Below, in pieces: positions 22,649 to 57,977 of a stretch of DNA of 57,978 bases. A program made the translations under genes and the position numbers. Position 1 is the stretch's first letter. Each line of letters starts with the position of its first letter. Source of the DNA: Candidatus Omnitrophota bacterium (GTDB lineage Bacteria > Omnitrophota > Gorgyraeia > Zapsychrales > Zapsychraceae); assembly GCA_020632515.1 (NCBI GenBank), contig JACKFK010000012.1, forward strand, positions 1-57,978. The letters are read 5' to 3'. The notes under the pieces are model-generated. The model made no database searches. It was given only the letters and a program-made list of their open reading frames with translations, and was not told the origin of the DNA.

Positions 22649-22921
22649 TCATCGAGTTTTATCAACTTTTATAGCTTGATCAACCAAAATTAAAACTTCA
22701 CTACCAACATCAACTTCTAAAATTCCACTTTTAATATTAAATCTTTCCATTGATTGATTCTGTCTAACCTCAATGGTTCCGTCCTTTAAGGTAGTTACAA
22801 AAGGCGCATGATTGGCTAAGATCCCTACAGATCCTTCTTCTCCTGGAACGGAAACAGATTCAACCGATTCATCAAAAACTTTTCCGTTTGGTGTAATAAT
22901 TGAAAGATGCAGATTGGCCAT
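22649..22921 (-). CDS. atpC: ATP synthase epsilon, N-terminal beta domain only
   Basis: IITPNG, VPGEEG..GILANHAP; 90 aa, no C-terminal helices. Confidence 0.88.
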   Translation of the reverse strand: MANLHLSIITPNGKVFDESVESVSVPGEEGSVGILANHAPFVTTLKDGTIEVRQNQSMERFNIKSGILEVDVGSEVLILVDQAIKVDKTR

Positions 22922-22925
22922 AAGT

Positions 22926-24356
<1,431 letters not shown>

Positions 24357-24378
24357 TTATTTAATATTCCATCATTTC

Positions 24379-25275
24379 TTATTTTAACGCTTCAGCGCCT
24401 GCCACAATTTCTGTTAATTCCGTAGTGATCGCAGCCTGTCTAGCACGATTGCGTAATAAAGTATTCTTTTGTATAAGATCAACAGCATTTTTTGTTGCGT
24501 TATCCATCGAGGTCATCCGCGCGCCATGTTCACCTGCCCAATTCTCCAGCATCGCAAAATAAACCTTAAAATATAAAAAATGTGGAATTAAATAATTAAG
24601 TAATACCTTTTGATTAGGTTCAAATATATATCCATATTCATTTTTTGTAATATTTTCTTTGGTATCATCCCGTAAATCTCGCCGGATTAAAACAGCAGGA
24701 TCAATTGGCAAAATTTTTTCAAATATTGATTTTTGTAATAAAGGACTAAAAAACTGATTATAAACAAGATAAATCTCATGATATTCCCCAAGAATAAAAT
24801 GCTCGGCTAAATCACCTCCTATACGGACAGCAGATTCAAAACTTGGCTCATTATTCAAATTTTCATAATGGTTCTTAATTGGCAGACGTCGTTGAAAAAA
24901 GGCATATCCTTTCTTCCCACAGCAACTCACATCAATCTGATCGTACTGGCCTTGATTACGTTCAATCCACGATAATACCTGTTTATGCGCATTATGATTA
25001 AAAGCGCCGCATAACCCTCGATCAGAAGTAAAAACTAAAATTAAGGCTTTATTATTTTCCTTGTGAGTCTTTAATAGAGGATGATCATCTTTGGTTAATT
25101 GCGCGGTCACACGTGAAATTAAGTCCGTAATATGTTTAGCATAAGATTTCGCGTTTGATTGAGCTTCATTCGCTTTACGTAATTTACTCGCAGAAACCAT
25201 TTTCATGGTTTTCGTAATTTTTTGCGTATTTTTAAGACTTTTAATCTTGGAATTATATTCTTTAATGCTTGGCAT
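24379..25275 (-). CDS. atpG: ATP synthase gamma
   Basis: KITKTMKMVS, SDRGLCG, RQAAITTEL. Confidence 0.97.
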   Translation of the reverse strand: MPSIKEYNSKIKSLKNTQKITKTMKMVSASKLRKANEAQSNAKSYAKHITDLISRVTAQLTKDDHPLLKTHKENNKALILVFTSDRGLCGAFNHNAHKQVLSWIERNQGQYDQIDVSCCGKKGYAFFQRRLPIKNHYENLNNEPSFESAVRIGGDLAEHFILGEYHEIYLVYNQFFSPLLQKSIFEKILPIDPAVLIRRDLRDDTKENITKNEYGYIFEPNQKVLLNYLIPHFLYFKVYFAMLENWAGEHGARMTSMDNATKNAVDLIQKNTLLRNRARQAAITTELTEIVAGAEALK

Positions 25276-25277
25276 AA

Positions 25278-26801
25278 TTATGCGCTTTGCTGATATTTCC
25301 CTTTAAATTCTGTTAATAACTCCTGTAAGGATTTCTTGACTTCATCATTTAAAGCTTTTTCTTTTTCAAACAATTTCACAAAGTCAGTATACATTGAATC
25401 AAGGGCATCAAATAATTTTGCTTCAAAGTCTTTTACTTTATTCACAGGAATATCATCCAAATACCCATTAACGCCGGCGTAAATAATAGAAACTTGTTTA
25501 ACAACACTTAAAGGAGAATAGATACCTTGCTTGATAATCTCCATTAATCGCTGCCCCCGCTCTAACTGATGCCTGGTGGCCGCATCCAAATCGGAAGCAA
25601 ATTGAGAAAAAGCTTCTAATTCACGAAATTGAGCCAAATCTAACCGTAGTGTGCCCGCCGTTTGCTTCATCGCTTTAATCTGCGCATCGCCACCGACCCG
25701 GGAAACTGATATACCAGGGTTAATGGCTGGACGTTGGCCAGAATTAAACAAATCGGATTCTAAAAATATCTGTCCATCCGTAATTGAAATAACATTCGTT
25801 GGAATATAAGCGGAAACATCTCCTGCCTGTGTCTCAATAATTGGTAAAGAGGTTAAACTCCCTCCACCATTTTTATCATTCATTTTTGCTGAACGTTCAA
25901 GCAACCGACTATGCAGATAAAAAATATCTCCTGGATACGCTTCTCGTCCTGGAGGACGTCTTAACAATAATGATAACTGCCTATAGGCTTGTGCTTGTTT
26001 GGTCAAATCGTCATAAATAATCAAAGCATGTCGTCCGCTATCACGATAATATTCTGCCATAGCTGTTGCAGAATACGGGGCCAAAAACTGCATTGGCGCA
26101 GGATCCGACGCAGTCGCCGCCACAATGGTGGTATATTCCATGGCACCATGTTTCTTTAAAGTTTCATAAACTTGCGCTACCGTAGAACGCTTTTGTCCAA
26201 TCGCGACGTAAAAACAAAAAACACCTTGTCCTCGCTGGTTAATAATAGTATCAATGGCTAAAGAAGTTTTTCCTGTTTTCCGATCACCGATAATTAATTC
26301 CCGTTGCCCCCGACCAATCGGTGTTAAAGCATCGATAACTTTAATACCTGTTTGTAAAGGTTCATGAACATTTTTGCGTTCAATAATTCCAGGCGCTTTA
26401 ATTTCAATTTGTCGTAATTCTTTAGTTTCAATCGGCGCGTTACCATCGATCGCAACACCGAGCGCATCCACAATACGGCCAATGAGAACATCCCCAGCCG
26501 GGACTGAAGAAATTTTCTTAGTCCGTCGAACTTCATCTCCTTCTTTTATTCCTGTATCCGCACCAAAGATAGCGACCCCAACATTATCTTCTTCCAAGTT
26601 AAGCGCCATGCCCATAATTTTTGCCTGTGAAAACTCAACAAGTTCTCCTGCCATAACATTATTAAGTCCATGAATCCGCGCAATGCCATCGCCCACAGAT
26701 AAAACTGTTCCTATTTCGTAATTTTGTGATTTTTTTTCAAAATCCGTTAACTGCTGACGTAAAATCGCGGAAACTTCTTCCGGTTTAATATTTAAAGACA
26801 T
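25278..26801 (-). CDS. atpA: ATP synthase alpha
   Basis: [27 protein letters not shown]. Confidence 0.98.
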
Positions 26802-26813
26802 AGAACAAATCCT

Positions 26814-27350
26814 TTATACAGAGACAAGATTATTCTTAAATTTATCTAATAAGGATTGGATGCTAAAATCAAGCACTTGATCTTCAATCTGTAACTTAAT
26901 GCCACCAATCATGTCTTCATCCAAGAAAACATGCGGCTCAATTTCCTTTCGAAACTTTAACTTCAAATGCTGAGAAATATTACTAAGCTGTTGTTTTGAC
27001 AATTCAGTCTTTGTGATGATCCGCACACTCATTATATTTTTATGTCTTTTGTAAATTTCAGCAAATTTAAGACATATTAAAGCAAGATAATTCAGCCTCT
27101 TTTTTTTTACTAATAATAAAAGAAAGCGCATAACACTCTCATCAACTTTTGCCATGAATATTTTTTTCAGAATCATAATTTGTGAAGTTTCTTCTAGCGT
27201 CGGATCTTTAAGAAATTCTTGAAAATCAGAAGCTTGCAAAATTATTTTATGGATAAATTCCAACTCTGTGTAAATTTTGTCAAGCTCACCTTGATTTTCG
27301 ACAAATGAAAATAAAGCTTGGGCGTATCGTTGTGCTACAACAGAATTCAT
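26814..27350 (-). CDS. atpH: ATP synthase delta
   Basis: VAQRYAQALF, IGGIKLQI..D.S; canonical position. Confidence 0.9.
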   Translation of the reverse strand: MNSVVAQRYAQALFSFVENQGELDKIYTELEFIHKIILQASDFQEFLKDPTLEETSQIMILKKIFMAKVDESVMRFLLLLVKKKRLNYLALICLKFAEIYKRHKNIMSVRIITKTELSKQQLSNISQHLKLKFRKEIEPHVFLDEDMIGGIKLQIEDQVLDFSIQSLLDKFKNNLVSV

Positions 27351-27353
27351 TTG

Positions 27354-27899
27354 CTATATTTCACGAATATATTGATTAATAAGTTTTTTATTCTTCTCTT
27401 CATCCAGATTTTCTTCAATAATCTTGCTAGCTAATTTTACGATAATATCAGCACTTTCAGCGCGTAGATTTGCTCGAGCCTTCTCGACTTCATTTTTAAT
27501 CTCCCTTTGCGCGTTTTCAATAAGTATTTGACTTTCTTCACGCGCTTTTTGTTCAATATGTTTAGCAGCTTCATGTGCCGCCTTTTTTGAACGTTCAATC
27601 AGAGCCTTGCTTTTCTCTTCAGCTTCTGCAATTAAATTTCTACATTTAGCATCAATTTCTTCTAACTCCTTTTTAATCTGATCTGCATTCTTAACCGCAT
27701 CTTCAATGTGTTTTTCACGGTGATCAAGAGCGGCTAAAATCGGTTTCCACGCATACTTATACAAAACCGCTAACAATAAAAAAAAAGTAATCCAAGTTAG
27801 AAAAAGCATTGTTGCATCAGGATTAATAAATCCTGATGGTTGATCGTGATGCTCTATAGACTCTTCTAAACCTTCAACTAATAAATTGTCTTTACTCAT
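27354..27899 (-). CDS. atpF: ATP synthase subunit b
   Basis: TM then AWKPILAALDHRE and a coiled coil. Confidence 0.92.
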   Translation of the reverse strand: MSKDNLLVEGLEESIEHHDQPSGFINPDATMLFLTWITFFLLLAVLYKYAWKPILAALDHREKHIEDAVKNADQIKKELEEIDAKCRNLIAEAEEKSKALIERSKKAAHEAAKHIEQKAREESQILIENAQREIKNEVEKARANLRAESADIIVKLASKIIEENLDEEKNKKLINQYIREI

Positions 27900-27911
27900 A
27901 ATTTTAAAAGT

Positions 27912-28136
27912 TTATTTATTTAAGGCCATTAAACAAATAACCGCGCAAAAAAAGGCAACCCCTTCAATAAGCGCAGCCGCGATAATCATGGCGGTTTGTA
28001 TTTTATTTCCTGCTTCAGGCTGTCGAGCAATTCCTTCCATAGCTGAAGCAGCAATTTTACCAATACCAATTCCTGCTCCTAACGTGACAACGCCAGCCCC
28101 TATTGCAGCAAAACTTCCTGCCGTTAATGTCTCCAT
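27912..28136 (-). CDS. atpE: ATP synthase subunit c (H+-type signature)
   Basis: GAGIGIG, ARQPE, LIEGVA; lacks the Q...E-S/T Na+ motif. Confidence 0.95.
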   Translation of the reverse strand: METLTAGSFAAIGAGVVTLGAGIGIGKIAASAMEGIARQPEAGNKIQTAMIIAAALIEGVAFFCAVICLMALNK

Positions 28137-28231
28137 AATTTTGTATCCTTTCTTTTTAAATATTATAATTTTTTAGATTATATCGATTGAATAACTTCAT
28201 GTAAAGCATTACTGCTTTAAATTAAGAAAAA

Positions 28232-28996
28232 TTAATGCTCAGGATGATACATCTGGCCAATAAACATGGCCGATAGTAATGTATAAATATAGGCTTGCAA
28301 AAAAGCCACAAGAATTTCAAGTATATAAATTAATAACGCTAATAAAACAGCTGGTAAGGCGGCGTATCCTAATAAAACAACCATTCCTAATAATGAAAGA
28401 ATAACGATATGACCAGCAAGCATATTAGCAAATAGTCGAATCATCAGGGCAAACGACTTTATAAATAATCCAACTATTTCAATCGGTATCAGTAGTAATA
28501 AAACCGGCCCGGGCACGCCAGAAGGAATAAAAGCCTTAAAAAAACCGCCAAGTCCATTTTTATAAATTGCTCCAAAAATCATAAAACTTAATGTAATTAA
28601 CGCCAATCCCGCTGTCACATTAATATTCGCTGTAGCTGTTGAAAAAAGAGGAATTAATCCCATCACATTTAATGTCAAAATAAAGAAGAAAAATGTGCAG
28701 AAAAGTGGTGTCATTCGCCGGCCATCTTCTTTTCCTAAATAAGCGATGGCAATTTGATCACGGACAAATAACACAAATATTTCCAATAAATTTGTTATCC
28801 CTTTAGGAACACGCTCGTTCTTTTTATACTGAAAACAAAACAAATAGATAAGAATTAATGATGCAATAAATAACATAACCCCATGCAAGGAAATATGCTG
28901 CGGTAAATTAATCACAGGTAAGAATGGTAAATGCCACTGATCGGTATCATTTAAATGATGCAAAATATAATTGTCTAGATTAAAAGGACCTGTCAT
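28232..28996 (-). CDS. atpB: ATP synthase subunit a
   Basis: TATANINVT, RLFANMLAGH, LQAYIYTLL. Confidence 0.95.
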   Translation of the reverse strand: MTGPFNLDNYILHHLNDTDQWHLPFLPVINLPQHISLHGVMLFIASLILIYLFCFQYKKNERVPKGITNLLEIFVLFVRDQIAIAYLGKEDGRRMTPLFCTFFFFILTLNVMGLIPLFSTATANINVTAGLALITLSFMIFGAIYKNGLGGFFKAFIPSGVPGPVLLLLIPIEIVGLFIKSFALMIRLFANMLAGHIVILSLLGMVVLLGYAALPAVLLALLIYILEILVAFLQAYIYTLLSAMFIGQMYHPEH

Positions 28997-29005
28997 TGGA
29001 AATAT

Positions 29006-29353
29006 TTATTTCCTCAATAAAGATTTTCTATGCAATTGTGTAATATGATAAACCATAAATAGAAGATACACAACCATGAATGAAAAAATTAATTGTTCCG
29101 AATAAAACTTTTTCGTATTTAAAATAAAGCTTAAAATTGTTAAAAAAATAAGAAACTTTACCCCATTAAATAGCATACATTTCAAAGCAAAATTTTCTGA
29201 TTGTTTTTCTATCCTGCGACTTAAAAAAAGCGTTACTATTTGATACAATATTGCTAAAAAAATTCCAATCAAAAACTCAAAGGTATGAATTTTATAAAAT
29301 ACTAAATAAGTTAAAAGATAAGAAATTATACTGAAGGAAAGTATATTAATCAT
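29006..29353 (-). CDS. AtpI-like 4-TM membrane protein
   Basis: Position before atpB and hydrophobic profile only. Confidence 0.55.
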   Translation of the reverse strand: MINILSFSIISYLLTYLVFYKIHTFEFLIGIFLAILYQIVTLFLSRRIEKQSENFALKCMLFNGVKFLIFLTILSFILNTKKFYSEQLIFSFMVVYLLFMVYHITQLHRKSLLRK

Positions 29354-29565
29354 GAATCTTTACGGTTGGTTTCTTTAATCACTTTCCATAATTCATAAAA
29401 ACAGTAAATTAAACCGAATAGAGCTCCAATAATGGTCCAAAAAAAATCATTCCCTCTTTTTTGATCTAAATAGAAACCGCCCACGGAAAATAAAATCATC
29501 CCTCCAGCCAAATTCATTCCTAATGAAACATAAGATGTTGCTTTGCTATCAGGCTTTTTCATCAA
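29350..29565 (-). CDS. AtpZ/AtpI-family protein
   Basis: G..LD...G....TIIG.L.G pattern, 2 TM. Confidence 0.8.
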   Translation of the reverse strand: MMKKPDSKATSYVSLGMNLAGGMILFSVGGFYLDQKRGNDFFWTIIGALFGLIYCFYELWKVIKETNRKDS

Positions 29566-31243
29566 AACTTAGAATTTGGTGGATTTCATCTTCTTTATCA
29601 CTTGTTAATAAACGTTCTCTATTGGATTCTAAAGAAATAAATCTTGCCACTTGAGCAATTAAATTTAACTGCATCCCATCATCATTACTATCCGTTAATT
29701 CTAAAAATAATAGACGGACAGGCATATTATCGGGGCTACCAAAATCAATACCATCTTTCAGACGGAAAAAACATAATATAGGTGTTTTTAAATTGGGGAG
29801 CCTCGCATGTGGTAAGGCCACGCCTTCACCAATAGCTGTACTTAGACTTGTTTCTCTTTCCCAAATCGCTTTTTGAATAAGCTTAGCATTATCAATGATC
29901 TTACGTTTAGCCATTAACTTAGTAATTGCGTCAATAACCTGCTCTTTAGTTTTTCCTTGTACATCCAAAAAGATATGATCTTTATCAAAAAATTTCGCCA
30001 ATGGTCGACGAACACCTTTAATCGCCCATTTTAGAAGAGGGCCAACACCAATTGAAGTAAGCACACAAATAATCACTATACTTGAAAAAATAATCTCATT
30101 AAATACACCCAATTCAAAGCCAATTAGCGCGATAATAATCCCCATGGTTCCCTGCGTATTAAGACCGCAGGCTACCGCGAATGCATTCTTTCTACCTAGA
30201 CCACCAAGAATTGCCCCAATATAGGCGCCGCCTATTTTACAAAAAGAAGAAATAAAAAGTAAGAGAAGAATAACTATCCAACTGGTCTCTTCTGTAAATT
30301 TTAATTGCATCCCAATTAAGACAAAAAATATTGGCGCGAACACAGCAAAAATAAATTCTTGCGTCCATTGCCTCATATAAGGTGTGATTTTCTGTGATTC
30401 GCCCGCCATTAAGCCGGCCACAAAAGCTCCGAAAATAACGTGTATTCCGAGCATATGCGCGACAGCCCCATTCAAAAGCGCTAAAGAAAAAAGTAAGGAC
30501 AACGCTACCGTTGTATCCATTTTCTTATAGCCGATCATATCAAAAAATTTATCAATTACCCGAGGAGCTATCGTAAGCGTAAAAACCAAATAAACAACCA
30601 TCGTTATAATTGGTTTTAAGAATGTCTCTAAGGTAAACGTTCCTTTGATAATTAAGGATAATATCATCGCGACAATAGACCATCCCCAAATATCACTTAA
30701 AACACCTGTGGTAAGAATCTTCAACCCCACTTCCGATTGAAAGATTTTTAGATCAAAAAGTATTTTTGCAATGACTGGAATTGCCACAACTGCTAAGGCA
30801 ATAGAAATTAATAATTTCACATGGATCGGATTAATATCTTGCGGAAAGAAAGAGTGTGGCAAAAAAAATGAAAACCAATAAACCCCGATAAAAGGAAATA
30901 ACAATGCAATCAAAGACATATAAATACTTTGCTTACCTTGACGCAGTGATGCTCTTAAGTCAATCTCAAGCCCCGTAATTAACAATAAAAAAATAACACA
31001 GAGCCAAGAAATTCCCTGTAAAAGGTATGGCTGAAATCCTTCGGATGGAAATAAGAAATTAAAATGCTTAGGAAGAAGTTTCCCAAATATCATCGGACCA
31101 AGTATAATTCCAGCACCAACTTCTCCGACAATAATTGGTTGCCCTAAACGCCTGGCTAATTCACCAAATATTCTAGCTGCCAGCATAATAATGCCTAACT
31201 CTGCGACAAAAATAAATACCGCATGCTCACTTAAAACAGGCAT
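29549..31243 (-). CDS. CPA2-type cation:proton antiporter fused to a PTS EIIA(Ntr/Fru)-like domain
   Basis: GQPIIVGEVGAGIILGP, FGAFVAG, KIGG; C-terminal TAIGEGVALPHAR. Confidence 0.85.
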   Translation of the reverse strand: MPVLSEHAVFIFVAELGIIMLAARIFGELARRLGQPIIVGEVGAGIILGPMIFGKLLPKHFNFLFPSEGFQPYLLQGISWLCVIFLLLITGLEIDLRASLRQGKQSIYMSLIALLFPFIGVYWFSFFLPHSFFPQDINPIHVKLLISIALAVVAIPVIAKILFDLKIFQSEVGLKILTTGVLSDIWGWSIVAMILSLIIKGTFTLETFLKPIITMVVYLVFTLTIAPRVIDKFFDMIGYKKMDTTVALSLLFSLALLNGAVAHMLGIHVIFGAFVAGLMAGESQKITPYMRQWTQEFIFAVFAPIFFVLIGMQLKFTEETSWIVILLLLFISSFCKIGGAYIGAILGGLGRKNAFAVACGLNTQGTMGIIIALIGFELGVFNEIIFSSIVIICVLTSIGVGPLLKWAIKGVRRPLAKFFDKDHIFLDVQGKTKEQVIDAITKLMAKRKIIDNAKLIQKAIWERETSLSTAIGEGVALPHARLPNLKTPILCFFRLKDGIDFGSPDNMPVRLLFLELTDSNDDGMQLNLIAQVARFISLESNRERLLTSDKEDEIHQILSFDEKA

Positions 31244-31253
31244 TTCTTTATTC

Positions 31254-31571
31254 CTATATCTTTATTAGTTGGATTAAGGAAAGGATCAACATTAAAACCG
31301 TTATAAGCAAAAGCATTCCCGCTGGCATTACTTTTTTTGTCTTGATTAAGCGTTTAAGAAAAACAATTAATAAAATTCCACTCGTCGCAGCAATGATTGT
31401 AAGCCCGCAGTTCAAACTTTCTCGCGCCAGGAAAATTCCTGTAAAAATGAATCCCCCAGACAGAATCCCCATAATTAAAGAAACTTTACTACCTGCTTTC
31501 TTAAATCCCATATACCCACCAAAAACTAATAAAATTCCATATACCGAAAATATGATATTAAGTGCTAACAT
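31254..31571 (-). CDS. TMEM14-family membrane protein
   Basis: YG.L...GGYMGFKKAGSKVSLIMG and K.MPAG signature. Confidence 0.85.
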   Translation of the reverse strand: MLALNIIFSVYGILLVFGGYMGFKKAGSKVSLIMGILSGGFIFTGIFLARESLNCGLTIIAATSGILLIVFLKRLIKTKKVMPAGMLLLITVLMLILSLIQLIKI

Positions 31572-31585
31572 ACCTTTCCTTTCAT

Positions 31586-32926
31586 TTAAACTTTTTGTAA
31601 TTTACTGGATATCTTATTCTTTGAAAAATTCTTTTTTAAGGTTTCATTCGAAATTAACGATTTCTCTACAGTATCTGCAAGAGCCTGAATAAATCCCGGA
31701 TGGCATTCAATGGCTTTAGACATTCTGAAATCATGGATACCCAAATGATGCGCCAGTTCTCTATATTCCACATTAATTTCGCTAATCGTCTCGATATGAT
31801 CTCCAACAAACGATACTGGAATAACAATAATTTTTATAATACCACGGCGAGCGAGGGCTTTCAGCATTTGATCTGTGGCAGGTTTTAACCATTGTAAAGG
31901 CCCTACCGCGCTTTGATAAGAGATGACCCAACGATCTGTTCTATTTAATTTTTGTAAAATACCTGCAACCGTTTCGGCAATCTGAAAAGGATACGGATCT
32001 CCTTCTGTAAGAAAATACAGTGGTAAACCATGCGCTGAAAAAAGCAAATAAAAGTCATCCAAAGATTCATCAACTCTTAAAGCTTCATTAATACGCTCAA
32101 TAAAAGCTTGAATATACCCTTCATGTAAATAATATGATGAAGCATTAATAATATTTATGTCAGGATATTTAAGAGCGGCCTTTTTTAAATAAAATAAATT
32201 AGACCCTGTGGTAGCCTTAGAAAAATGCGGATACAAGCTTAAAGCTAAAAGTGTTTTCTTACGATTACGCTGAGCTTTTTCAATTGTATCTTGGGCAAAC
32301 GGTGGGCTATAGTTAAAGGAAAACGTCACATCAATATCCCTTCCTCGCCTTTTTAACTCTTGCCTTAAAGCCTGAGCTTGGGCTGTGGTAGATTTATATA
32401 TTGGACTTCCTCCGCCTATCTCCTGATATAAAGTTTTAACAGCTTTCAATCTAACTTTAATCAAAATCCAGGCAAATATTTTTTGAAATAAAAAAGACAA
32501 AGGAAAGCGTATCAATAATGGATCAGAAAATAAATGTTTCTGAAAATCTTTAACATCATCATTTGTTCTAGGGCCTCCCATATTAAGCAAAGCCACTAAG
32601 ACTTTCGAATCCTCGATGTTGTGTGGCTTAATTATGTTCAAATGATCAATTTGATCAATTTTCTCCCGTTCTTGAACAGACATTCTTTTTTGTTTCCAAC
32701 GACTTCCAATAATTTGTCCAGTAATAGCCGTGAGAATCGAAAATGGAATAATCCAAGGATTTAAATGTTCTGTAACACGAATATAAATGAGTAAGGGAAT
32801 TGAAGCATGTATCCAGAAAAACCATTTAAAGGAAAACTTTGGATATTTTTCCCGAATGTATCCACAAGGAATATTAATAAGAAAAGCGATAAATATCGCA
32901 GTAAAATAAATAAATATCTCGTGCAT
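31586..32926 (-). CDS. hemH: Ferrochelatase with an N-terminal ~80-aa membrane domain
   Basis: LLNMGGP, IGGGSPI, FSAHGLP, YQSAVGP..WL.P, FVGDHIET; in-frame hydrophobic extension. Confidence 0.9.
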   Translation of the reverse strand: MHEIFIYFTAIFIAFLINIPCGYIREKYPKFSFKWFFWIHASIPLLIYIRVTEHLNPWIIPFSILTAITGQIIGSRWKQKRMSVQEREKIDQIDHLNIIKPHNIEDSKVLVALLNMGGPRTNDDVKDFQKHLFSDPLLIRFPLSFLFQKIFAWILIKVRLKAVKTLYQEIGGGSPIYKSTTAQAQALRQELKRRGRDIDVTFSFNYSPPFAQDTIEKAQRNRKKTLLALSLYPHFSKATTGSNLFYLKKAALKYPDINIINASSYYLHEGYIQAFIERINEALRVDESLDDFYLLFSAHGLPLYFLTEGDPYPFQIAETVAGILQKLNRTDRWVISYQSAVGPLQWLKPATDQMLKALARRGIIKIIVIPVSFVGDHIETISEINVEYRELAHHLGIHDFRMSKAIECHPGFIQALADTVEKSLISNETLKKNFSKNKISSKLQKV

Positions 32927-32930
32927 AATG

Positions 32931-32963
32931 TGTGTATTCTAACACAGATCTCTCTTTCTTCAA
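32931..32963 (-). promoter_or_regulatory. Putative hemH promoter overlapped by a TGTGT-N6-ACACA palindrome
   Basis: TTGAAG-16 nt-TAGAAT with extended TG; the -10 is the N6 spacer of the palindrome (32931-32946). Confidence 0.4.
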
Positions 32964-44064: not shown

Positions 44065-45141
44065 TTAAGAATGGATTGACATATCAGTATACGAAGCACT
44101 ATGAGAGGAATTGTAAATATTATTCTTTTCAACCTTTGCACAAAACTCAGTGTATTTTGTCTGTACAATTTTTTCAACATCCCCGACAGCGGCCATACGA
44201 ACTTCTTTATTTTGATTAACAATTTTATCTAAATCATCAATTGTAAATAAAAGAACATTACTCAGTGTAGCCACCTCAGGAGCAATATTTCTTGGCATAG
44301 AAATATCGATAAACATCATTTTTTTAAAAGAAGATTTACGAAGCACTTTTTGAACAGTTCCTTTTTCTAAGACGTAATGGGGAGCATTTGTTGAACATAT
44401 ACACAAATCGACCTCTGTTAAAGTTTCTTTAATATCACAATATTCCACAACTTCCCCGGAATATTTACTGGCAAGATTAAGGGCATTGTCAATTGAACGG
44501 TTCATCAAATAAAGTTTTTTTAATTTTTTTTGCGCTAATTGCTTTACAGCTAACTCGCTCATTTTTCCTGCCCCAAGAATCAAAACAGATTTATTTTCCA
44601 GCGTATCTAAAACTTTTTCAGCCATGGCGATCGCCGCCCAACTTACAGAAGATCCCCCATAACAAATATTTGTCTCTGTCTGAGCTTTTTTTCCAGTTCT
44701 TAATGCAATATTAGTCAACAAATTAAAGTATTTAGATAGGGCCCCTTCTGCCCTTGCAACTTCAAAGGCATCCTTAAGCTGGCCGAGAATTTGTTTTTCA
44801 CCCAACACAAGAGAATCTAATCCGCAGATTACCCGCAGAAGATGCTCTACGCTTTTTTGTTCTCGATAAATATAAATGAAATTTTTAAAAGAAAGAATCT
44901 CTTTATTTTCTTTTATTGAAGAAATTAAATTGATAACCTCTTCTAACGGATAATAAAAATCAATAACATTAAGATAAACTTCTGTTCGATTACATGTAGA
45001 AATAACAAAGGATTCTATAACGGCAGGATTATTTTTTAACTCGCTGAGAAGTAGACGCTGCTGGGTAGCGTTTAAATAAAATTTTTCCCTAATATCAATC
45101 GGGGCTGTTTTGTGGTTAATACCAATCGTAAATAAATTCAT
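44065..45141 (-). CDS. hemA: Glutamyl-tRNA reductase (short C-terminus)
   Basis: GINHKTAP, STCNRTE, LDSLVLGE.QILGQ, GAGKM; ATG 45141 preferred. Confidence 0.93.
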   Translation of the reverse strand: MNLFTIGINHKTAPIDIREKFYLNATQQRLLLSELKNNPAVIESFVISTCNRTEVYLNVIDFYYPLEEVINLISSIKENKEILSFKNFIYIYREQKSVEHLLRVICGLDSLVLGEKQILGQLKDAFEVARAEGALSKYFNLLTNIALRTGKKAQTETNICYGGSSVSWAAIAMAEKVLDTLENKSVLILGAGKMSELAVKQLAQKKLKKLYLMNRSIDNALNLASKYSGEVVEYCDIKETLTEVDLCICSTNAPHYVLEKGTVQKVLRKSSFKKMMFIDISMPRNIAPEVATLSNVLLFTIDDLDKIVNQNKEVRMAAVGDVEKIVQTKYTEFCAKVEKNNIYNSSHSASYTDMSIHS

Positions 45142-45234
45142 TTTATCATTTATAGACAGATTAAAAATATGTTTGAAGTATAACAAAAATAAATTTAACC
45201 TTCAATCCCATTTGTTCTTTTTTCTATTAGCAAA

Positions 45235-53745: not shown

Positions 53746-55355
53746 AAATTCTCGAACCACAAAATAATGCTTTATTCCTTGCCTATTGGCGTGAACGTAT
53801 GCGACCAGGCCCTCTTTTTTCTGCTTTTCTATTAATCAGCGTTATTGTCCTTTTGATTTTCGCCAATGGCCTGATGAACCCTGAGTATGTGTATCATTAT
53901 GATATCCATACAGGCGATCATTCCCAAAGAACACTGTTAGCCTGGCCTAAAAAGGTTTTGCTTGATTTATGTTACCTGCAAGGAACTATTATTTTACTTT
54001 TTGGCTCAGTATCCGTCTATCGCAAAGCAGCCCGAGAACGTTCAAGCAAAGTGATCGACTTTCACCGCTGTTCTCCAACTTCACGAATTGATCAAGCCTT
54101 AGGAATGCTTTTTGGCGGAGCATGCCTAGAATGGACTTTATTCATAGCCCTAACACTCATTGAATTCTTCCTGCTTACCTTTTCCTATTTACCTTACGGA
54201 TTCTTTCTCCAATTTATTGGTGCGTTAGTGATCTGCGCCTTATTTTTTCACTCGTTATGTATTCTCATCGCGATTTCCCAAAATCATTCCACACAGTCAC
54301 GCGTCGGTGTTGTGGGCCTCCTTATCCTTTTATATTTTGGCATTACTCTATTTACCGCATCCAAGCTATCATTTTTTTACCATATGTCCTGGGTTCCCGC
54401 CTTTGATCAACTAACACTCGCAATTAAAGGAGAACGCTATCACTACACCCCATACTATTTTAACCAACGAAAAATTCTTTATATGTTTTTTGGTTATAAA
54501 ATCAATTCTTTCTTTTTTCAAAGCATGATTCAAATTCCTTTTATCGCTCTTTTTATTCATGCTATCAAACGAAAAATCTCGGCCATTGATCATCCTCCCT
54601 TTTCTAAAGGCCAGACATTGCTCAGCATTTTTTATCTCCTCTTTCTCTTTTCTGGCAGCGCAATTTCAGCGATTATCCATGAAGAAAATTATAACCCTTT
54701 TCAGAATTACCACTACAGTCACATCAAAGAATATTTACTTTCTGGCTTTTTTTATCTTACAGTTACCTTAGGTATTCTTGGCGCTTTTTTAATAACACCT
54801 GACCGCAGTGTTTATAAAAAAGGTTTAAAACGTTGCTTAAAATTAAAAGTTCCTCGTCTTCGTTCCGGAGAAGATCCAAGTTTAAATATTAAATGGCTCT
54901 TTACTCTTTGTTTCATTATTTTCGTAAATTATATCCTTTACGCCCTTATCTTCAAAATCAGTTTCTTGACGGGCTTTCTGCATTTACTCATCCTCATGAG
55001 TTATCCTCTCTCTTTTGGATTTCTCTATCAATTTTTTCAACTCTCCCAATTCCAGCACAAAAGACTTATCTTTGGGACGATCTTGTTAATTTTCTGGATT
55101 GTCTTGCCGATCTACAGCAATATCATTAAATTTAAAGCTAAAGCCTCTTTGCTTTATCTTCTCTTTACTGCGCCTTCCCCATTCTTCGGCGGCATTATTG
55201 CTATGATCCAATCCATAACCAAAGTGCCACACACTGACTTAAAAGAGCTAATCTCTTATACTGTTATTTCAGTAGTCATAACATTATTTTCATTGGGGTT
55301 AGTATACTATTCGCGAAATCAGCTTAAAAACAAAGTTCTTAAAGAAGGTATTTAA
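53742..55355 (+). CDS. ABC exporter permease-like membrane protein
   Basis: More than 10 TM; ATGA overlap with the ATPase gene. Confidence 0.7.
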   Translation: MKILEPQNNALFLAYWRERMRPGPLFSAFLLISVIVLLIFANGLMNPEYVYHYDIHTGDHSQRTLLAWPKKVLLDLCYLQGTIILLFGSVSVYRKAARERSSKVIDFHRCSPTSRIDQALGMLFGGACLEWTLFIALTLIEFFLLTFSYLPYGFFLQFIGALVICALFFHSLCILIAISQNHSTQSRVGVVGLLILLYFGITLFTASKLSFFYHMSWVPAFDQLTLAIKGERYHYTPYYFNQRKILYMFFGYKINSFFFQSMIQIPFIALFIHAIKRKISAIDHPPFSKGQTLLSIFYLLFLFSGSAISAIIHEENYNPFQNYHYSHIKEYLLSGFFYLTVTLGILGAFLITPDRSVYKKGLKRCLKLKVPRLRSGEDPSLNIKWLFTLCFIIFVNYILYALIFKISFLTGFLHLLILMSYPLSFGFLYQFFQLSQFQHKRLIFGTILLIFWIVLPIYSNIIKFKAKASLLYLLFTAPSPFFGGIIAMIQSITKVPHTDLKELISYTVISVVITLFSLGLVYYSRNQLKNKVLKEGI

Positions 55356-56713
55356 AGAAGAGATTTGTTAGCAGAATGATACGCATTTTCAATACAGTCA
55401 TTAAAGGAAATCCCTTTAAGATAGTTCGCACAGAAATGAAGCCGCGGAAATTGAGCAGCGAGCTGCTCCAATTGATCTCGTAATGCTAAATACGTTTGAG
55501 TATATTGAGGAATTCCACGCCGCCATTTTTTAATATAAACTTGTTTCGGTGAATCTTCTGCTTTTAAAACCTGATTTATTTCTTGTAAAGCTAATGCAGA
55601 AATTTCATCCTCGGATAAATCTTCAACTTCTGGATGACGACTGCCACCAATCATCACCCTGACAAGAATTTCATCCTCAGCACAACGATTTGCAAAAATT
55701 AAACTTTCAAATAAAACTCCTAAAGTTTGCCGCCTTTCACTAGAAGGGATCAAATAACCAAAACCTTGCGGAAAATTCTTAAATGCACTTTTAGCGTAAA
55801 CCAATCCCACAACCGCAATAGGCGCGTATTCAAATTGATTTAACAACTCCGCCAAGTCTTTGTTAAGTTCTTTTAATAAATAACTGCTACCATACGCAGG
55901 CGCACAAAGAAAAATTTCATCAGCGTCATACATCTGACCATCATATTTAAAACAATACTTCTCTTCCTTTTGTAAAATTGATGCCACGTCTATTTTTGTA
56001 TGAATATATACCCGATACATTGTATACAGTTTTTCGATCACAGATCCCATGCCATCTTTAAGTGAAACTAATTTCCGTTTAATTTTCTTATCGCGTTTTT
56101 GTTTAAACAATCCTTTGATAACCGACCCGTATGTCTGTTCAAGTGCATAGATTTTTGGAAAAGCCGCGCGTACACTAATCTTCTTTGCATCGCCGGCATA
56201 AATTCCACTGACCATAGGATCTAAAAATAATTGCGCAACCCGTGGCCCGAAGCGCCGCTGAAAAAAGTCAAAAACACTTTCCTTTGGATCTGTTCCTGCT
56301 TTCTGAAAAAACTCTTGAAAAATGCGAATCTTTTCCCTGGCGCTGAATAATGGAAATTTAAACAATGCCACTGGATTCATCGGAACCGGATATAATTGAT
56401 TTTGATACGAAATAAAACGCTTTTTGGCTTGAGCTGAAGCAACAATGAGTTGATCTGCTATCTGAATTTCATGAAAAAATTCCAAGGTAAGAGGATTGAT
56501 GGTCAGAAATCCATTTGGTCCATGTTCAAAGAGATGTTTATCTACTTGCTGAGAATGAATGGTTCCGCCAGGAAACTTTTCTTTCTCAAATAATTTAATC
56601 TCAATATCGTCACGTTTGCAATATTTTCTGCAAAGATAATGCAATGTCGCCAGGCCACTAATGCCGCCACCTATAACTGCAATGCGCTTAAACTTTGATT
56701 TTTTTAAATTCAT
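55352..56713 (-). CDS. hemY: HemY-type protoporphyrinogen oxidase
   Basis: IGGGISGL, GGTIHS, EHGPNGF, GIYAGD, GFGYLIP, GIPQY. Confidence 0.92.
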   Translation of the reverse strand: MNLKKSKFKRIAVIGGGISGLATLHYLCRKYCKRDDIEIKLFEKEKFPGGTIHSQQVDKHLFEHGPNGFLTINPLTLEFFHEIQIADQLIVASAQAKKRFISYQNQLYPVPMNPVALFKFPLFSAREKIRIFQEFFQKAGTDPKESVFDFFQRRFGPRVAQLFLDPMVSGIYAGDAKKISVRAAFPKIYALEQTYGSVIKGLFKQKRDKKIKRKLVSLKDGMGSVIEKLYTMYRVYIHTKIDVASILQKEEKYCFKYDGQMYDADEIFLCAPAYGSSYLLKELNKDLAELLNQFEYAPIAVVGLVYAKSAFKNFPQGFGYLIPSSERRQTLGVLFESLIFANRCAEDEILVRVMIGGSRHPEVEDLSEDEISALALQEINQVLKAEDSPKQVYIKKWRRGIPQYTQTYLALRDQLEQLAAQFPRLHFCANYLKGISFNDCIENAYHSANKSLL

Positions 56714-57689
56714 GCACTTTATCTACAACAAACTTAAGTTTATCAACTTCCACGTCGGGAAAAACACCATGACTTAAATTAAAAATATACCGCTGGTGCT
56801 GGCTGCCTCCAAGTAAAATCTTTTCAACTTCTTTTTCCAATTGCGGATAATCCAAGTAAAGATTTCCGTTGAATAAATTTCCCTGAACCCCTTTTTGAAT
56901 TTGATTCAATGTTGCTGGCGTGCCCAAATTAACCGTGTGGTCAACGGAAAGAAAATCAGAATTAACTAAATCCAACAACGATAAAAGATGCGCTGTATTA
57001 CGGACAAAATAAATTGACGGCACTTTAAGGGCCGCAAAAATTCTTTGAACATAGGGCAAAACTAAATCCTTAAAATCTTCCTGGCTTAAAATTCCGGCAC
57101 AGGTATCAAACAATTGCACAACATCCGCGCCTGCTTTAATCTGCTGTTGCAGATATCGAATTGTATTTATTGTTAAGATTTCCATAAGTTGATGAAAGGC
57201 GTCTGTTTCCGCTTTCATATACTTAAATAATTTCTTATAACCAACAGAAGATCCCCCCTCAATCAAAAAGGATAAAACAGTAAATGGAGAACCCGCAAAC
57301 CCAATTAATGGAATATTCCGCGTCAATTTGTTTTTGACTTGTTTAATTGTTTCTGTAATATGTCCTATCTCTTCATGGTCATGAACGTCTTTCATTTTAA
57401 AATGCGTATCAATGACCGGCCCTTTTCGATCATCGAAACCAATCTTAAACCCCATAGCACCTGGTAAAGTCAGAATATCGGCAAAGAGAATCGCAGCATC
57501 AACCCCCAAAATATCAATCGGTTGACAAGTAATCTCTGCTGCTAAATCTGGCGTTTTAAACATCGTTTCAAGAGAATGCGCCGCCTTGATCGCCTGATAT
57601 TCAGGCAAGTAACGTCCAGCTTGGCGCATAAACCAGACTGGAATCGTTTCATTTGTTCCAGCAAAAGCCTCAAGGAATGGTGAGTTCAT
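56688..57689 (-). CDS. hemE: Uroporphyrinogen decarboxylase
   Basis: PVWFMRQAGRYLPEY, AAILFADIL, IGFAGSPFT, FNLSHGV. Confidence 0.95.
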   Translation of the reverse strand: MNSPFLEAFAGTNETIPVWFMRQAGRYLPEYQAIKAAHSLETMFKTPDLAAEITCQPIDILGVDAAILFADILTLPGAMGFKIGFDDRKGPVIDTHFKMKDVHDHEEIGHITETIKQVKNKLTRNIPLIGFAGSPFTVLSFLIEGGSSVGYKKLFKYMKAETDAFHQLMEILTINTIRYLQQQIKAGADVVQLFDTCAGILSQEDFKDLVLPYVQRIFAALKVPSIYFVRNTAHLLSLLDLVNSDFLSVDHTVNLGTPATLNQIQKGVQGNLFNGNLYLDYPQLEKEVEKILLGGSQHQRYIFNLSHGVFPDVEVDKLKFVVDKVHEFKKIKV

Positions 57690-57692
57690 TGT

Positions 57693-57977
57693 CTAAACTG
57701 TTCGTGAAAAACGATTTTTATTTTCATTATTTCTCGGCAAATAAGCATCAAAGCCCATACAAATATTACGAATAAATAACTTTCCTAGATCTGTTACGAT
57801 AATTTTATCAGAAGAATTCATTAATAATTCTTGATTTACGCAATTCTCAATATGCTTTATCTCGTGAGAAAAATACTCATGAAATGACTGCTTAAATACT
57901 TCATAAAATTCATTTTTATCAATCTCAAAGCGACACATAAGCGTTCGAATCACCCATTGACGAATCTGATCATCGAT
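57693..57977 (-). CDS. hemN: Oxygen-independent coproporphyrinogen III oxidase, C-terminal part (truncated by the window)
   Basis: DDQIRQWVIRTLMC, GKLFIRNICMGFDAYL, RFSRTV; frame open to the edge. Confidence 0.88.
   Translation of the reverse strand: MDDQIRQWVIRTLMCRFEIDKNEFYEVFKQSFHEYFSHEIKHIENCVNQELLMNSSDKIIVTDLGKLFIRNICMGFDAYLPRNNENKNRFSRTV

Follow-up and report, generated by a model that had tools for sequence, protein, structure and literature searches.

Vertebrate TMEM14C, a protein of the mitochondrial inner membrane (2LOS), has been cited as a requirement of erythroid haem metabolism, and a study of the mitochondrial haem-metabolism complex detected it in a Ppox pull-down (PMC4545792). 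Its counterpart in Toxoplasma gondii, Tmem14c, is a small mitochondrial protein that is dispensable under standard growth and absent from Plasmodium; an accessory role in haem handling has been proposed for it, with a drug-sensitivity phenotype and unchanged steady-state porphyrin (PMC7511413). Plants encode FAX1-FAX7, members of the same family that export fatty acids from plastids, and Li et al. (2015) noted that this family, Tmemb_14, also has members in "some bacteria" (PMC4344464). The literature we searched contained no report linking a bacterial TMEM14 to ferrochelatase. Here we describe a TMEM14 gene that directly follows the ferrochelatase gene hemH in a 57,978-nt contig from Candidatus Omnitrophota bacterium (JACKFK010000012.1, assembly GCA_020632515.1; the whole stretch is called the window). 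This gene order is conserved throughout the TMEM14-bearing genomes of the window's order (Zapsychrales), has a single origin, and has been broken by repeated loss of TMEM14. We tentatively propose, at a probability of about 0.4, that the protein is a membrane helper, dispensable and particular to this clade, that eases the hand-over of tetrapyrroles at the ferrochelatase step.

The TMEM14 open reading frame matches PF03647 (Tmemb_14) over profile positions 4-90 of 92 with 72.3 bits, against a cut-off of 24.8. In a whole-genome search the score was 71.8 bits and the gene was single-copy in the assembly, which spans 1.66 Mb and is 72% complete; the window itself has 35% G+C. Full-length phmmer comparison found human TMEM14C (2LOS) at E 2.6e-6, a modest similarity of 31 bits, and human TMEM14A (2LOO) at E 1.5e-5, and a profile built from bacterial relatives reached E 1.3e-11 and 3.2e-9 for the same two proteins. 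The window protein and human TMEM14C have in common a glycine-rich motif, GGxxG(Y/F)xKxGS..SL..G, and a second motif, R...(T/S).K.MPAG; the Gly-rich and MPAG motifs are shared with TMEM14A as well. PF03647 was the sole Pfam match, and on this result we rejected two other identities, an AtpI/AtpZ protein (PF03899/PF09527) and a HemJ-type protoporphyrinogen oxidase. Judged by its sequence, then, the window gene is a genuine TMEM14/FAX gene in a bacterium. Its likeness to vertebrate TMEM14C extends to the common Pfam family, full-length alignment and a tie to terminal haem synthesis; the two differ in that the bacterial tie is known here from gene order alone.

A hydropathy scan of the TMEM14 translation marked segments at residues 1-23, 30-49, 52-76 and 79-106. 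The AlphaFold2 model, built with 17 homologues, agrees in predicting four helices (2-26, 29-51, 53-78 and 83-104; pLDDT 88). A Foldseek search of this model against the PDB returned no match at E<=0.001, and 2LOS, 2LOO and 2LOP were not listed; these nuclear magnetic resonance (NMR) models were solved in micelles and are unlike the AlphaFold2 bundle. The best match was chain I of the Chlamydomonas Ycf2-FtsHi chloroplast motor complex (8xqw_I, E 0.23, probability 1.0), and 8xks_J was found as well; the TMEM14 profile had no sequence match to either chain.

On the coding strand, the junction between the two genes reads ...GTT TAA ATGAAAGGAAAGGT ATG..., with 14 nt from the hemH stop to the TMEM14 start and a Shine-Dalgarno-like AGGAAAGG in the spacer. 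The sequence-only reading had described a TMEM14 homologue starting 14 nt behind hemH with a ribosome-binding site, and both the Pfam match and the spacer bear this out. From this layout, TMEM14 is very probably co-transcribed with hemH, and its translation is probably coupled to that of hemH. A promoter-like TTGAAG-16-TAGAAT (with a TG) lies at positions 32927-32963 on the minus strand and ends 11 nt 5' of the hemH ATG, which has no preceding Shine-Dalgarno sequence, so the transcript of hemH and TMEM14 may have almost no leader. Across 22-34 kb of the window, a scan for promoters and terminators found signals no more often than in shuffled controls, and is neutral on an internal promoter.

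The upstream gene is a ferrochelatase by two profiles, both exceeding their cut-offs, with PF00762 covering residues 111-423 at 311.9 bits. Its translation contains FSAHGLP and GDHIETISE, in which we take the SAHGLP and DHIET motifs to hold the catalytic histidine and glutamate. Fused to its N-terminus is a membrane domain for which our reading of the sequence gives three helices and a topology; the hydropathy scan (window 17, threshold 1.6) marked a single segment there, residues 1-24. By the positive-inside charge pattern, the catalytic domain would lie on the cytoplasmic side. An alignment of the membrane domain showed invariant W-I-H, R, G-Q and P residues, and its profile found 757 cluster representatives at E<=0.001 (455 at E<=1e-10), many of them stand-alone proteins of 85-125 aa (members include P0131-P0280). 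None of ten sampled members had a Pfam domain, and by its sequence the domain belongs to an undescribed family. One stand-alone homologue, P0130, adjoins dciA and tusA and not hem genes. Some longer, Ala/Gln-rich and alga-like members (P0175, P0216 and P0173) carry several Cys-Pro dipeptides upstream of the domain (KCPFLH, GCPLR) that resemble haem-regulatory CP motifs. Cyanobacterial ferrochelatase is likewise tethered to the membrane, by a fused C-terminal CAB/Hlip transmembrane helix thought to manage pigment flow. A fused membrane anchor is thus the likeness between the two enzymes; the Omnitrophota anchor differs in being N-terminal, with about three helices, in coming from an undescribed family, and in having TMEM14 as a partner gene.

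We sampled 401 genomes across the phylum and found a Tmemb_14 match in 29; we counted 22 of these as strong, 15 of them in the window's order. All 15 TMEM14-bearing genomes of the order encode hemH, each with hemH (or hemH-hemA) directly upstream of TMEM14, and no TMEM14 match was reported in genomes of the order that lack hemH. The ancestral order is ccsB-ccsA-moeA-mobA-hemA-hemH-TMEM14-atpZ-atpB...atpC-HEAT-Rieske, all on one strand, and metagenome contigs with close TMEM14 homologues share this order. Pfam annotation of L036, L038, L040 and L041 contributes to the evidence that the F1Fo operon comes directly behind TMEM14 in most relatives. In 20 of 21 contexts, TMEM14 starts between -14 and +134 nt from the stop codon of hemH or hemA, and in several the genes overlap by 4-14 nt. 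The lone exception is a 796-nt insertion between hemH and TMEM14 in genome G243 (L061); read from its translation only, this gap holds a HepT/MntA-like toxin-antitoxin pair (a nucleotidyltransferase and a HEPN/DUF86-like protein).

At least four separate events have parted TMEM14 from the atp genes, and each time TMEM14 stayed beside hemH or hemA. A gene for a CPA2 antiporter fused to an EIIA-like domain lies between TMEM14 and the atp operon in the window, in G203 and in L181, and is missing in most relatives; in G396 (L062) the same place is taken by an APC permease with EIIA and TrkA_C-like domains, and in L182 by methyltransferase and glycosyltransferase genes. G243 has its atp operon relocated, and TMEM14 did not move along. 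In L036, where hemH has another location, the TMEM14 and hemA genes share a 4-nt overlap. In none of the contexts examined had TMEM14 left the hem genes together with atp, and none had it beside atp only. Because TMEM14 was kept on the hem side in every break, an affiliation with hem is favoured over a role as leader of the atp operon; the numbers are small, and the block is syntenic. The TMEM14-atpZ junction is itself a repeated insertion site, where two unrelated transporters, both with an EIIA-like domain, have come to lie before the atp operon.

Based on this conserved order, we outline a role for the protein. TMEM14, a predicted four-helix membrane protein of ~100 residues, would be made from one transcript with a membrane-anchored protoporphyrin ferrochelatase, and the hemH-TMEM14 pair lies within a long run of respiratory-chain biogenesis genes on one strand. 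The presence of HemN, HemY and the anchored HemH indicates the protoporphyrin-dependent branch, whose intermediates are hydrophobic. TMEM14 would then act as a non-essential, clade-specific helper at the membrane face of HemH, where it would make it easier for a hydrophobic tetrapyrrole to partition or be handed over. The cargo may be protoporphyrin(ogen) IX moving inward, or haem moving outward towards CcsBA, haem-a synthesis and cytochromes; such a helper would be analogous to what has been proposed for TMEM14C in mitochondria. A stronger form of this proposal makes TMEM14 proteins direct membrane partners of ferrochelatase; in this clade TMEM14 would dock on the anchored HemH to receive haem or feed protoporphyrin, with the HemH-fused domain belonging to the same hand-over machinery; we think this form unlikely.

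Several findings weigh against a helper role. In a maximum-likelihood tree, all 20 hem-linked TMEM14 proteins form one clade (support 99/96), so the hem linkage arose once; a second Omnitrophota TMEM14 clade stands apart from it and groups with Planctomycetota sequences. As sampled, the hem-linked subclade is confined to one Omnitrophota order. If a random gene is assumed to lie beside one of about nine hem genes with a probability near 1%, then with 8-15 TMEM14 lineages sampled the chance of at least one hem adjacency is 0.08-0.14. With a single event and a chance near 0.1, the gene-order evidence is suggestive only, and it draws its weight from fitting a specific prior expectation. The whole ccsBA-hemA-hemH-TMEM14-atp block is syntenic, and the hem adjacency is no better kept than its surroundings; from TMEM14 to the next gene, gaps are -4 to +31 nt in most contexts, as tight as those to hemH. 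TMEM14 has also been lost from six genomes that keep hemH (G209, G241, G282, G338, G379 and G139), and is therefore not essential. In G209 and G241, hemH runs into atpB and both TMEM14 and atpZ are missing; in G379 and G338, the CPA2-EIIA gene follows hemH directly; and in G282 and G139 no TMEM14 comes after hemH. Five of these six genomes retain the membrane-anchored HemH, and TMEM14 presence showed no association with the HemH membrane domain (12:7 versus 5:5, p=0.69). The TMEM14 translation has no histidine or other obvious haem ligand. Finally, bacterial HemY and HemH work on the same side of the membrane, and no transmembrane transport step is needed between them; since no compartment boundary separates the two enzymes, the protoporphyrinogen import proposed in mitochondria has no direct counterpart in bacteria. 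The repeated loss has a parallel in the dispensability of Toxoplasma Tmem14c and its absence from Plasmodium; the Toxoplasma protein is eukaryotic.

Across the phylum, TMEM14 and hemH co-occur with a raw odds ratio of 13 (p 6e-8). We did not use this as evidence, because a single clade with physically adjacent genes drives the odds ratio and the association is not independent. Outside the order, a PF00762 ferrochelatase was present in two of seven TMEM14-bearing Omnitrophota genomes, on another contig, compared with a background of ~20%. There was no PF00762 match in the TMEM14-bearing genomes G310, G346, G042 and G066 (86-93% complete), nor in G401, G402 and G577, which are Verrucomicrobiota or unassigned. 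These ferrochelatase-less genomes, some of which are incomplete metagenome assemblies, all contain ALAD, and may make haem by another route or other tetrapyrroles only. We found a full ALAD match in 12 of 14 TMEM14-bearing genomes tested, and in a thirteenth (G098) a 30-residue fragment at a contig end. For tetrapyrrole synthesis in general, association with TMEM14 was not significant: ALAD was clear in five of the seven genomes outside the order, with a fragment in a sixth, against 53% of the phylum, giving p ~0.08 even at 6/7 for genomes that are not independent.

Bacterial Tmemb_14 genes fall into more than 3,300 clusters. To survey TMEM14 elsewhere, we used an alignment of the non-hem ("GYVKAKS") type, which samples non-hem TMEM14 clades only, to scan 185,579 species genomes, and read the best 80 of 445 loci. 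These came from other Omnitrophota, Verrucomicrobiota, Cyanobacteriota (including Obscuribacterales), Myxococcota, Planctomycetota and Acidobacteriota. Flanks of ±6 kb were probed for HemA, HemH, HemE, HemY and HemN with single sequences, which are less sensitive for HemY; HemB, HemC, HemD and HemL were not probed. A hem gene was found in the flanks of one of these 80 loci, a HemH 4.4 kb away on an Omnitrophota contig, and no hem family was among the 25 commonest immediate neighbours on either side in a Pfam tally. Among these loci, adjacency of hemH and TMEM14 in phylogenetically independent lineages was thus not found, and a count of hem genes near bacterial TMEM14 homologues, which the sequence-only reading had proposed as a check, gives no enrichment outside one clade. 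No atp genes were seen beside TMEM14 in the other phyla among the 80 loci. In 36 of 76 loci, essentially all Verrucomicrobiota, the gene downstream of TMEM14 is Glyco_hydro_75-like. This conserved and seemingly undescribed pair (L099-L167; for example L030, 8001-9750) has the second gene, of ~460 aa, on the same strand, and points to a substrate other than haem. In the second Omnitrophota clade (L089, 1629-2241; L090; L094; L067, L069 and L071), the gene after TMEM14 encodes a SEC-C-motif miniprotein of 88-90 aa, an MFS_1 transporter is often found next to TMEM14, and several of the genomes lack ferrochelatase.

These data bear on three other explanations for the hemH-TMEM14 order. One is that TMEM14 is a positional passenger, a general small membrane protein acting on lipids or fatty acids, or in membrane homeostasis, that became fixed by chance in a stable superoperon. 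Plant FAX proteins offer a precedent, being alike in family and size; they differ in having a fatty-acid substrate and no haem tie, and FAX1 carries a transit peptide and one more helix at its N-terminus. The single origin of the hem linkage, the repeated losses, the genomes with TMEM14 and no PF00762 ferrochelatase, the near-background frequency of hemH in TMEM14-bearing genomes outside the order, and the other conserved partners seen in other lineages (Glyco_hydro_75-like, SEC-C-motif and MFS proteins) all agree with a passenger. Its difficulty is that TMEM14 has kept a hem gene at a distance of at most 134 nt in 20 of the 21 contexts, which span at least six families and several rearrangements, and that the stop codon of one gene often overlaps the start codon of the other; the parallel to the haem phenotype seen for vertebrate TMEM14C is, moreover, a specific one. 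We regard a passenger as a serious possibility that nonetheless falls short of even odds. Another explanation takes the gene for an atp-operon leader like atpI or atpZ, serving Fo assembly, ion supply or the membrane potential, on which TMEM14A reportedly has an effect in mitochondria. Like AtpI/AtpZ (PF03899, PF09527), TMEM14 is a small hydrophobic protein whose gene comes just before the atp genes in most relatives: the next gene is atpZ or atpB in ~16 of 22 contexts, after a gap of -4 to +31 nt, and TMEM14 and atpZ are jointly missing in G209 and G241. An accessory role of this kind nevertheless seems rather improbable to us. TMEM14 has no similarity to PF09527 or AtpI, a separate, real atpZ is present, TMEM14 in the loci read from other phyla does not lie beside atp genes, and each event that split TMEM14 from atp, including the relocation in G243, left it with the hem genes, with none the reverse.

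The sequence-only reading had gone further, and took the junction as genomic evidence for an ancestral porphyrin-handling role and for a bacterial membrane haem-synthesis module. In its general form, porphyrin handling would be ancestral to the whole Tmemb_14 family from bacteria to vertebrates, and TMEM14 would mark such a module across bacteria. Haem links are indeed found in animals, tentatively in Toxoplasma (PMC4545792, PMC7511413) and in one bacterial clade, and most TMEM14-bearing genomes tested make tetrapyrroles, judging by ALAD. The family-wide census points the other way, with hem genes near a single locus of 80, and ALAD is widespread in the phylum in any case; plant FAX proteins, moreover, act on fatty acids (PMC4344464). 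The bacterial hem link is clade-specific, dispensable and of single origin, and so cannot serve as evidence for an ancestral porphyrin function. Together with TMEM14-bearing genomes that lack ferrochelatase, this leaves an ancestral role very improbable. The module fares no better, as hemY, hemE and hemN share only the wider region with TMEM14.

The remaining hem genes of the window are scattered. hemA, which is directly upstream in most relatives, here lies 11 kb upstream of hemH, beyond a chemotaxis cluster, and the hemN fragment, hemE and hemY lie 22-26 kb upstream of hemH-TMEM14. All four genes that the sequence-only reading had placed in the locus are therefore present in the window, hemN as a fragment, and none is adjacent; spread over ~26 kb of a respiratory-biogenesis region, they form a locus in a loose sense of the term. 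A true HemN of 456 aa is encoded in the relative L036 (TIGR00538, 538.8 bits), a further pointer to the protoporphyrin-dependent branch. Downstream, the CPA2-EIIA gene begins 10 nt after TMEM14, and its end overlaps the atpZ-like gene orf71, which matches PF09527 (ATPase_gene1) and leads the F1Fo operon. The operon is followed by a HEAT protein and a Rieske/cytochrome b module, all on one strand.

Table 1. Features of the window around the hemH-TMEM14 pair, with the evidence for each assignment
Feature	Position (nt)	Strand	Evidence
TMEM14/FAX-family (Tmemb_14, PF03647) membrane protein, 105 aa, four predicted helices	31254..31571	(-)	Pfam, phmmer, AlphaFold2
hemH-TMEM14 spacer, 14 nt, with Shine-Dalgarno-like AGGAAAGG	31572..31585	(-)	read from sequence
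Ferrochelatase (HemH/PpfC) open reading frame, 446 aa	31586-32926	(-)	PF00762, TIGR00109
Ferrochelatase catalytic domain	31586..32611	(-)	PF00762 E 5e-93, TIGR00109 288.6 bits
Membrane domain "X", ~105 aa, fused N-terminally to HemH, ~three hydrophobic helices	32612..32926	(-)	sequence reading; no Pfam match
CPA2 cation/proton antiporter fused to PTS-EIIA(Ntr)-like domain	29549..31243	(-)	PF00999 + PF00359
F1Fo ATP synthase operon (atpZ-like orf71, orf115, atpB-E-F-H-A-G-D-C)	22649..29565	(-)	PF09527, synteny, Pfam
hemA (glutamyl-tRNA reductase)	44065..45186	(-)	PF05201 + PF01488
Late protoporphyrin-branch haem genes: hemN 3' end, hemE, hemY (PgoX)	55352..57977	(-)	TIGR00538, PF01208, TIGR00562
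hemY (protoporphyrinogen oxidase)	55352-56713	(-)	TIGR00562, 292 bits
hemE	56688-57689	(-)	PF01208
hemN fragment, last 94 residues	57693-57977	(-)	TIGR00538 residues 364-454

Other bacterial TMEM14 clades, such as that of the Verrucomicrobiota with its GH75-like gene, point to other substrates within the family. Mitochondrial TMEM14C may itself work as a transporter, as a scaffold or in some other way. The bacterial hemH-TMEM14 genes form a minimal pair that can be co-expressed. If TMEM14 is indeed a direct partner of ferrochelatase, this simple two-gene system would reveal the molecular job of mitochondrial TMEM14C, a question that dates from 2014.

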